Origin: an uncultured virus (IMG/VR IMGVR_UViG_2512564001_000007)
Taxonomy: Duplodnaviria; Heunggongvirae; Uroviricota; Caudoviricetes
DNA: 45,027 nucleotides
Direction: 5' to 3' (one strand)
Virus record (IMG/VR): IMGVR_UViG_2512564001_000007
In this document: positions 41,806 through 42,459 of the stretch, piece after piece
How positions within the stretch are numbered: the stretch's first letter is position 1
How the letters are laid out: each line of letters opens with the position of its first letter
Program-made: the position numbers and the translations under genes
Notes under the pieces: generated by a model
What the model was told of the DNA's origin: nothing
The model's database searches: none
Seen by the model: the letters and a program-made list of their open reading frames with translations, nothing else

Positions 41806-41833
41806 CAACAAAAAACCCCGCAAAAGCGAGGTT
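41806..41833 (-). terminator. Intrinsic terminator, copy 2 of a 28-bp direct repeat
   Basis: AACCTCGCTTTTGCGGGGTTTTTTGTTG, identical to 42432-42459. Confidence 0.85.
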
Positions 41834-41931
41834 CACTGTATTAATTCATAGGTGCAGTAGGTTTGTCATTACCATTCCCCGCACCTAGCTTCCTATTGTT
41901 TGGAAGTCTCACAAGTCCCATAAGGGTTCAT
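41808..41931 (-). ncRNA. Candidate ~120-nt structured small RNA downstream of pemK-like gene
   Basis: Own promoter; hairpins 41889-41906 and 41849-41887; ends in a terminator; no substantial ORF. Confidence 0.6.
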
Positions 41932-41936
41932 AAAAA

Positions 41937-41965
41937 AGTATCTTTCAGTGTCGCCTGAATGTCAA
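41937..41965 (-). promoter_or_regulatory. Strong sigma70 promoter
   Basis: TTGACA (41965-41960), 17-bp spacer, GATACT (41942-41937). Confidence 0.75.
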
Positions 41966-41966
41966 G

Positions 41967-42368
41967 TCATTTCACTAAATAGGACATACCTATTCCATGA
42001 AGAACAGAATTCTTTATTTCTTTCATCTCATTATCAGAAATTCTAGGTACTTCATAATTTCTACTATTACAGGTTCGTAATTTTATTCTATCTAATCTTT
42101 CTATAGATACAGCCATAATCATATCACACTTGACCCAACACCTTAAATGTTCTTTTCCAGGTATTGGGTTTTCTCGTAGTTCATAATGATGATCAAGAGC
42201 AGGTATCGGTTCTGTTGTGCTAACAGGAACAACTGTGACTAGCTTATTATTATATCTGTTTCTGGCTATAACAATTATCGGCCTAATTTTAACAATTTCA
42301 GGAACAATTAATCCCTTAAAATTACACATAAGAACAGAACTTACCTGTGGTTGAAATTTCAATCCCAT
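41967..42368 (-). CDS. PemK/MazF family endoribonuclease toxin, no protein antitoxin adjacent
   Basis: PEIVKIRPIIVIA..LVTVVPVST..WVKCDMIMAVSIERLDR. Confidence 0.85.
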   Translation of the reverse strand: MGLKFQPQVSSVLMCNFKGLIVPEIVKIRPIIVIARNRYNNKLVTVVPVSTTEPIPALDHHYELRENPIPGKEHLRCWVKCDMIMAVSIERLDRIKLRTCNSRNYEVPRISDNEMKEIKNSVLHGIGMSYLVK

Positions 42369-42431
42369 TTATCAATTTTAATTTTAGCCAGTTAATAATC
42401 GGCTAACACTACATAAAGTCCACAATGATTT

Positions 42432-42459
42432 CAACAAAAAACCCCGCAAAAGCGAGGTT
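42432..42459 (-). terminator. tR'-like terminator, copy 1 of the 28-bp direct repeat
   Basis: Hairpin plus T run about 100 bp downstream of Q. Confidence 0.8.

Follow-up and report, generated by a model that had tools for sequence, protein, structure and literature searches.

The subject of this analysis is a gene for a PemK/MazF-fold protein and the structured RNA of about 120 nucleotides (nt) that lies just behind it in the genome of an uncultured virus (IMG/VR record IMGVR_UViG_2512564001_000007; the whole stretch of DNA analysed, 45,027 nt in length, is referred to below as the window). The gene and the RNA are linked to one another in homologous loci, the RNA has a conserved structure and is preceded by promoter motifs, and the protein possesses the MazF fold together with conserved MazF-like motifs. 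On balance, we lean towards the interpretation that the pair represents a family of type III-like toxin-antitoxin systems: a structured RNA, present in one copy, would act as the antitoxin and neutralise a MazF-fold nuclease.

Linkage was assessed with two covariance models of the RNA, R1 (built from 19 RNAs) and R2 (built from 86 matches), which were applied at a cut-off of E ≤ 1e-3 to homologue loci comprising 80 from one-genome-per-species collections and 72 from IMG/VR. R1 located the RNA immediately beside the PemK-like gene in 67/80 genome loci and 50/72 IMG/VR loci, and R2 added eight loci to each set to give 75/80 and 58/72, or 133/152 altogether, thereby bearing out an earlier note on this DNA, which had set the conservation of the downstream element in homologues as a check beforehand. 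Among the 19 misses, the contigs of L046, L094 and L171 end just 5–142 nt downstream, the gene of L146 is broken and L075 has a weak upstream match (E 0.019); the remainder are the most distant homologues, at 34–41% identity (L089, L095 with 257 nt left downstream, L157, L158 and L161–L170). The tight association extends well beyond phages, to chromosomes and plasmids. Record titles name many Pseudomonas, together with Caulobacteraceae, Brevundimonas, Neisseria, Haemophilus, Pasteurellaceae, Oxalobacteraceae, Vogesella and Acinetobacter. In Pseudomonas the pair occupies a syntenic chromosomal place between a LysR-type regulator and a ketoacyl synthase gene, while a 6.9-kb mobilisable Citrobacter plasmid also carries it (RNA, 86.5 bits) and a Vibrio satellite-like element has a weak RNA match (30.8 bits). 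No neighbouring open reading frame (ORF) family was common across taxa in the 80 genome loci.

Conservation can also be followed at the nucleotide level in 23 IMG/VR loci (L100–L122) with a protein that is 56–75% identical. A core of approximately 85 nt of the RNA was matched by blastn in 21 of these at 74–79% nucleotide identity, the coding sequence matching at 67–75%, and in the closest loci (L102 and L103) one continuous match of 73–75% covers both gene and RNA. When 50,697 phage records were searched, blastn gave no match for either the region or the enteric RNA, and tblastn of the protein returned 11 Vibrio satellite-like records only. The protein was found in none of 401 sampled genomes of the window's order (inferred to be Enterobacterales) at E ≤ 1e-10, which indicates that the gene is sporadic there and says nothing on its absence elsewhere.

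The same linkage emerges when the search proceeds from the RNA. A scan of metagenome contigs with the two invariant 10-mers of the RNA (20 specified bases) yielded 62 pattern matches, of which R2 confirms 41, and a PemK-family gene adjoins 38 of the 41 confirmed RNAs. The 21 matches that failed R2, 19 of them without such a gene and two with only weak matches to it (E ~1e-4), were dropped from the count and are taken as chance, because the pattern has only 20 specified bases and the collection is very large. The sole RNA match in 151 sampled genomes of the class (inferred to be Gammaproteobacteria) has a 34%-identical gene 78 nt upstream. In IMG/VR, 33/33 pattern matches were confirmed by the model, 20 with the gene and 13 without it; the solo RNAs score 87.8–99.5 bits, all 19 RNAs beside a full-length gene score 103.6–112.4 bits and the RNA beside a degenerate gene scores 77.7 bits.

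The RNA is present in 37 of 5426 complete genomes of E. coli, where it lies about 60 nt downstream in all genomes that have the gene (24/24), the other 13 of the 37 RNA-bearing genomes being without it. A truncated PemK frame stands beside an intact RNA in L101 and L113. Strain SE11 has the order antiterminator Q, PemK, RNA, and strain S19-651 the order Q, RNA; compared with SE11, S19-651 is missing 494 bp, which takes the gene and the -35 hexamer, and its solo RNA is thus regarded as a deletion remnant rather than a native late leader. Three RNA copies, 93% identical, lie directly after a different Q gene and without PemK in G012, one genome of the genus. A gene not seen without its RNA (in E. 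coli), and an RNA that outlives the gene and then drifts, form the pattern that would be expected of a toxin and its antidote.

The window is a lambdoid prophage, and the names on near-identical proteins point to Arsenophonus as the host genus. On the minus strand, descending from 44035, the order is NinB, NinG, Q, a spacer of approximately 100 nt, terminator T1, the PemK-like ORF, the promoter, the RNA, terminator T2 and a conserved block of 140 nt that closes in terminator T3. The individual parts, all on the minus strand, are as follows:

42562..42942, minus strand: antiterminator Q gene, 126 amino acids (aa), directly upstream of the module (PF06530, E 5.7e-51; PHROG 79)
42460..42561, minus strand: Q-to-T1 spacer with promoter-like TTTACG-16-TATCGT, read from the sequence and under the promoter-scan threshold
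42432..42459, minus strand: upstream copy of a 28-nt direct repeat, carrying intrinsic terminator T1 (stem 42459-42440, T-run to ~42430)
42368-41967, minus strand: PemK/MazF-fold ORF, 133 aa (PF02452 PemK_toxin, E 5.6e-13; PHROG 15698, E 2.5e-41)
41937..41965, minus strand: sigma-70-like promoter of the RNA from the promoter scan, with -35 TTGACA at 41965-41960, a 17-nt spacer and -10 GATACT at 41942-41937
41806..41933, minus strand: partner RNA, full covariance-model match of 103.1 bits, predicted 5' end near 41931
41917..41926, minus strand: hairpin P1 (CCC-UUAU-GGG), followed by the conserved single-stranded ACUUGUGAGAC (fold and covariation)
41889..41906, minus strand: hairpin P2 (CUUCC ... 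GGAAG), the strongest-covarying stem (covariation)
41849..41887, minus strand: hairpin P3, which has an inner stem and AAUGACAA as its conserved loop (GAUGACAAGC in the family consensus; fold and covariation)
41806..41833, minus strand: downstream copy of the 28-nt repeat, carrying terminator T2 (stem 41834-41813), which ends the RNA and the toxin mRNA
41692..41805, minus strand: conserved post-terminator block closing in terminator T3 (41716-41693), which follows the single terminator copy directly in module-free relatives

The exact 28-nt direct repeat (41806-41833 and 42432-42459) is a duplicated terminator that flanks a unit of 626 bp; its outer limits coincide with the coordinates 41806-42459 given in the earlier note, which does not mention the repeat. 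Within this unit, T1 and the ATG are separated by approximately 61–71 nt and no ORF of the window fits between them as an upstream protein antitoxin, in agreement with the claim that the PemK-like ORF is an orphan without room for a MazE/PemI gene. No tandem repeats were found in 41500-42700, nor any repeat family upstream of the PemK-like ORF, and the RNA is single-copy; a tRNA/tmRNA scan excluded its identity as either of these.

The minimum free energy fold of the window RNA consists of three hairpins and the terminator, as the earlier note had read from the sequence for an RNA of about 120 nt, and at -43 kcal/mol it is well below the shuffle mean of -26.8 (z -5.19), with 0/200 shuffles as stable. 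Covariation, the other structural feature that had been anticipated, was measured in an alignment (A3) of 86 sequences in 83 distinct rows, in which 97.3% of cells form standard pairs and all but two of the 26 pairs (24/26, 459 cells) show compensatory changes. At 0.617, covariation scores above the shuffle mean of 0.203, at a level that 0/500 shuffles reach and that exceeds slid controls (≤0.123). One such compensatory change, in hairpin 2, can be read directly in the L100–L122 loci, where CUUCC/GGAAG becomes CUUUC/GAAAG.

The consensus comprises P1 (CCC, loop, GGG), an invariant linker (G/A)CUUGUGAGACU, a variable and strongly covarying P2, a two-tier P3 with the invariant loop GAUGACAAGC, and a terminator that in the family usually has CUUUGUC after it, the total length being ~115–130 nt. 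The conserved linker, named CUUGUGAGAC, and the GAUGACAAG loop are the two invariant single-stranded motifs. A candidate pseudoknot would join CUUGU of the linker to ACAAG of the loop; both are near-invariant, and the pairing is broken in L038. Rfam 15 held no relevant match at E ≤ 10 in 41400-42700 of the window, RF02913 included, and no family reached its gathering score at the RNA position in 10 homologue loci. Judged by these comparisons, the RNA is a real structured RNA family, new to Rfam 15.

These data also bear upon the notion that the region encodes a very small downstream protein antitoxin, which would make the module a type II system in reversed order. Short ORFs are indeed readable, with 26 codons from an ATG inside P1 in the window and 24 codons in L104, but the reading frame is not maintained: in L107 a stop follows 16 codons, L100 is without an ATG, and indels of 1, 3 and 4 nt occur in hairpin loops. 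Because the short ORFs are conserved neither in frame nor in start, and because compensatory substitutions in 24/26 stem pairs denote constraint at the level of the RNA, a hidden peptide is scarcely credible.

Two further features of the RNA loci may be recorded. The RNA occurs in two copies in metagenome contig L274 (944-1077 and 1195-1330), nearly in tandem and beside a truncated PemK match (residues 1-54), and in two copies 3.8 kb apart in the Oxalobacteraceae genome L028 (4445-4582 and 8221-8358). A few hundred bases downstream of the partner RNA, other Rfam RNAs were encountered in two non-phage loci, namely C4 antisense RNA in a Pseudomonas putida locus (L071, 4957-5043; 78.9 bits) and sRNA-Xcc1 in a Pasteurellaceae locus (L021, 4631-4719; 68.3 bits), both of which are typical of mobile elements.

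The promoter described in the earlier note, TTGACA-17-GATACT, is present at 41965-41937 on the minus strand; its -35 begins one base past the TGA stop, and with 10/12 consensus matches it is the best of 8 promoter-like sites in 41300-43000. Eight sites is the chance level (shuffle mean 8.4), so that the promoter match alone is not beyond chance, and it is the conservation of the whole arrangement in homologues that marks it as more than chance. The motif TTGAC(A/T)-17-(G/T)A(T/A)AC precedes the RNA in 22 aligned loci of L100–L122 (L101 left out). In 84 loci, the 74 nt before the RNA were inspected by eye, unscored, and most display a -35-like GTTGC or TTGAC with a -10-like CAATACT, CATATT, TAAATT or GATAAT at the right distance; the proposal of a conserved promoter therefore holds for most of these loci, albeit not for every one. 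Where stop codon and RNA abut or overlap (a gap of about zero or below, as in Caulobacteraceae, Neisseria, Pasteurellaceae and Acinetobacter), the promoter lies inside the last toxin codons. No RNA run was listed with the stretch, and four raw RNA runs of one species label gave 0 reads, a result that carries no weight either way.

With regard to the position of the RNA, the expectation of a single-copy, downstream element was substantiated in that tandem repeats are absent and the RNA is usually downstream, but it requires amendment since in L073, L245 and the E. coli plasmid p5217 the RNA lies on the opposite strand, convergent with the gene, and in L154 it lies upstream of the gene. These variants suggest a trans-acting, independently transcribed partner rather than a mere 3' untranslated region. 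On p5217 (L174, 90-995), the protein is a more distant PemK-like protein of 169 aa (37% identical) with an ORF of 86 aa 16 nt upstream, and the RNA match is weak (28.2 bits, E 9e-6), on the opposite strand and overlapping the 3' end of the gene; this plasmid may represent a transitional or mixed arrangement.

Orientation is equally relevant to a type I-like mode of action, by which the RNA would act on the toxin mRNA, through base-pairing or as its 3' end in cis, and block translation or trigger decay rather than act on the protein. With no terminator between gene and RNA in the common layout, the toxin mRNA must continue into the RNA, and the convergent RNAs of L073, L245 and p5217 could overlap the toxin 3' end as antisense. 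The RNA is normally on the same strand, however, and hence is not antisense. A crude duplexfold test of pairing between RNA and toxin translation start at 76 loci found cognate combinations no better than non-cognate ones (means of -41.6 and -39.6 kcal/mol; Wilcoxon p 0.12). Furthermore, the RNA motifs are invariant while the toxin 5' regions diverge, and the covarying three-hairpin fold is more elaborate than an antisense RNA needs. Action on the mRNA is consequently considered improbable.

The protein itself matches PF02452 with 49.5 bits against a gathering cut-off of 23.1. An AlphaFold2 model from 21 sequences has a predicted local distance difference test value (pLDDT) of 83.8 and a predicted TM-score (pTM) of 0.80. 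Foldseek places the MazF proteins of B. subtilis and S. aureus at the top of its matches to this model (E ~3e-6), the listed MazF chains having TM-scores of 0.57–0.78 and an E24A mutant being among the matches, and the predicted fold is thus the SH3-like barrel of MazF/Kid. In sequence it is remote from solved MazFs; the best PDB match is MazF3 (E 0.095), whose motifs KARPV and VAPITTT align with K-x-RP and VVP-x-STT of the family. Residues P7, C15, E24, K27, R29, P30, P54, K80, D82 and R91 are invariant in 111 distinct members, S50 is conserved in 99% and T52 in 96%, and the window protein retains all of the invariant residues as well as S50 and T52. We take E24, R29 and T52 to be the residues that have been used to inactivate E. 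coli MazF or explain its catalysis. Searches of cluster representatives (50% identity) retrieved 1006 of 1.84 billion at E ≤ 1e-3, 567 at 1e-10 and 46 at 1e-30, and by this measure the family is a small, distinct sub-clade of PemK/MazF. Neither NCBIfam nor PADLOC has a model for the protein, and PADLOC, which includes type III models, gave no match for it and so nothing in favour of the role in phage defence that the earlier note had thought possible. The predicted fold and the conserved residues suggest that the nuclease is likely active; as the catalytic-type residues are MazF-like and conserved in 111 members, the protein would appear to be a working nuclease in need of restraint.

A different relationship between the two partners is conceivable, namely a dedicated ribonucleoprotein that is composed of RNA and PemK-fold protein and serves another function, where the protein processes, stabilises or is guided by the RNA, or the RNA serves as a regulatory small RNA on host or phage targets, and the protein is no free toxin. 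The gene-RNA linkage holds in both directions, the two invariant single-stranded motifs could be small-RNA seeds, and solo RNAs, among them L212 with an apparently intact promoter, suggest that the RNA is useful alone; the want of a PADLOC model for the protein would also fit. We nevertheless regard this possibility as unlikely, given that the catalytic-type residues are conserved throughout the 111 members, that the gene never occurs without the RNA in E. coli (24/24), that solo RNAs score below paired ones, and that the pair is found on small plasmids and at phage moron sites in the manner of toxin-antitoxin modules.

The site of the module was examined by comparison with sister prophages of the genus (L003, L014, L017 and L002), which have Q, a spacer and then the 41835-41692 block, without the PemK gene and without the RNA; L003, L014 and L002 have a single terminator copy at that site. 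Since these prophages hold Q and the downstream block without the module, the window is deduced to contain a 626-bp insertion between two terminator copies, and the module is, on this comparison, a 626-bp moron between Q and the lysis genes, at the Q-to-lysis junction. The TTTACG-16-TATCGT block (42519-42556, minus strand) is conserved with L003, L014 and L017 (alignment A4) and has behind it a -10-like TATAAA and an inverted repeat, GTGTCT/AGACAC; this conserved block after Q probably represents the real late promoter and pause region of the phage. Another terminator stands in place of the family's usual RNA terminator at L102 and L103, which are Xenorhabdus-like, and in the window, where it is the phage's own duplicated terminator.

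The first reading of the region had been that promoter and RNA are the late promoter pR' with a short terminated leader, of the lambda 6S or StxS type, and that the PemK-like gene is an unrelated moron between Q and pR'. Lambdoid phages have pR' and tR' immediately behind Q, and lambda 6S RNA is reportedly the short leader made from the late promoter of this lambdoid phage (pR'/tR'). In every lambdoid case the unit does sit after Q and before the lysis genes, and the RNA is found directly after Q without the gene in G012 (3 copies), in S19-651-like strains of E. coli and in IMG/VR groups. The available text of PMC7547250 describes pR' as a constitutive strong promoter that, with its terminator, gives an abundant short RNA, and StxS as 258 nt long before and 74 nt long after processing, with 94% identity between its copies in Stx1 and Stx2a phages. 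StxS itself and HnrS (as covered by the accessible part of PMC13502914) were ruled out as identities of the RNA, from which they differ in size and prevalence, the RNA being confined to 37/5426 E. coli genomes.

The late-leader reading was rejected by the comparative data from non-phage loci, from three Q families and from module-free relatives, and is very improbable. The RNA accompanies the gene on non-phage chromosomes and on plasmids without Q. At seven loci scanned, the adjacent Q genes belong to three PHROG families (79, 127 and 304) and have the same RNA, and it is this sharing of one RNA by three Q families that argues against a Q-specific control site. The sister prophages L003, L014 and L017 keep Q and the promoter-like block, and L003 and L014 the terminator as well, so that at least those two have a late control region of their own, while the solo copy of the S19-651 type, from which the -35 hexamer is missing, looks like the product of the 494-bp gene deletion.

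Returning to the type III-like interpretation, the RNA would be produced in excess by its own strong promoter and, in addition, in cis on every toxin transcript, whose 3' end it would form. It would bind the nuclease dimer directly and block it, for which the linkage, the asymmetry of loss and the separate promoter offer indirect support, and the GAUGACAAG loop or the ACUUGUGAGAC linker may serve as a pseudo-substrate in the substrate groove. The nuclease would be transcribed weakly or conditionally. In the window prophage there is no good promoter between T1 and the ATG, and toxin expression may therefore need transcription to pass T1, as it might, for instance, with Q-modified polymerase late in infection. 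Were the RNA lost or diluted, the nuclease would be set free, with addiction or abortive infection as the possible outcome. An extended form of this model, which is quite possible but which we advance tentatively, is that the pair belongs to an unrecognised, widespread toxin-antitoxin class in which a MazF-fold endoribonuclease is checked by one structured, possibly pseudoknotted RNA with a promoter in or behind the toxin 3' end, and in which RNA-only copies on phages could be decoys that disarm a host module.

Several points weigh against an antitoxin role of this kind. The traits that define type III systems, tandem RNA repeats upstream of a ToxN, CptN or TenpN toxin, are absent. Many of the 152 loci are interrelated, so that the counts overstate the number of independent events. 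Neither R1 nor R2 detects an RNA at the most distant homologues (34–41% identity, for example L157–L170) or on the Polaromonas plasmid L176, and the RNA is therefore either not universal or too diverged for detection there. Phage contigs have solo RNAs fairly often (13/33, in about four lineages, mostly right behind Q genes), and since the solo RNA of L212 keeps an apparently intact promoter, the RNA may be functional by itself. The fitting of alignment A3 to the model structure somewhat inflates its pairing counts, although the margin is nonetheless very large. Finally, just one of the five AlphaFold models was confident.

The fold of ToxN is Kid/MazF-like. The known type III systems (ToxIN, CptIN and TenpIN), as generally defined in the accessible portions of PMC3401426, PMC8860590 and PMC13682666, resemble the pair in consisting of a small endoribonuclease toxin and an adjacent non-coding RNA without a protein antitoxin, in occurring on phages, plasmids and chromosomes, and in a transcription architecture that ensures RNA excess. 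They differ in three respects. The toxin here belongs to PF02452 PemK/MazF, a Pfam scan giving this family only and no ToxN, CptN or TenpN; the RNA is one copy of ~120 nt with three hairpins, in contrast to tandem short repeats; and it lies downstream (occasionally convergent or upstream) with its own promoter, whereas the known type III RNAs are upstream, with a terminator before the toxin.

The module shares with the type II systems MazEF, PemIK and Kid-Kis the toxin fold and the RP and S/T-T motifs, but no MazE/PemI-type gene stands beside the toxin in the window and, as seen above, the 80 genome loci share no neighbouring ORF family. Its likeness to lambda 6S and StxS extends to a position just downstream of Q in prophages and to a short RNA delimited by a constitutive promoter and an intrinsic terminator; the partner RNA, in contrast, travels with a PemK-like gene outside phages and with three Q families. 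The pemK motif of Rfam (RF02913, accession confirmed) is likewise a structured RNA named for its association with pemK. It sits upstream of pemK in Firmicutes, is classed as cis-regulatory and, as stated above, has no match in 41400-42700 of the window. The pseudo-ToxI of a Pectobacterium phage is said to be a phage-borne antitoxin mimic, and by analogy the solo phage RNAs could neutralise a resident toxin-based defence, but several solo copies differ in that they look like deletion remnants, with no -35 hexamer and lower scores. No description of a PemK/MazF toxin with an RNA partner was found in the literature, where toxin-antitoxin catalogues in supplements or subscription journals could list one.

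MazF and PemK are standard examples of type II toxins, and their 'orphan' copies are usually written off as remnants or as gaps in annotation. As far as sequence comparison can tell, this PemK-like sub-family is not orphan but has a conserved, covarying RNA partner with a promoter motif. If the RNA is the antitoxin, control of the type III-like, RNA-antitoxin kind reaches the MazF fold, such RNAs need not be the upstream repeat arrays on which current type III searches depend, and a small, defined RNA inhibitor of a MazF-type nuclease would be at hand. The Q-to-lysis junction of lambdoid prophages is thereby flagged as a place where such modules are carried. Should the RNA serve a different purpose, the comparison still defines a new family of structured RNAs with a dedicated protein partner.

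Transfer RNA genes follow the module in several enteric prophages (L104, 3684-3911; L107, 3756-3813; L173, 5239-5400), and the S19-651 prophage has the order Q, RNA, methyltransferase gene, tRNA-Ile, tRNA-Arg; this presumably resembles the Q-to-lysis region of Shiga-toxin-type phages. In the window, the genes downstream of T3 form a moron cluster between module and holin (38703-41543, minus strand), consisting of a ParD-like/ParE-like pair, a trypsin-like peptidase, an ORF of 88 aa without a family and a hexapeptide-repeat beta-solenoid protein of 327 aa, followed by holin, endolysin, terminase, portal, and head and tail genes. The trypsin-like peptidase has weak PADLOC matches to RT-Protease_XI (2.8e-8) and LmuA (3.7e-7), and the cluster may constitute a small island for defence or addiction. 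A block of approximately 20 ORFs occupies 162-13691 on the plus strand, at the left end of the window.

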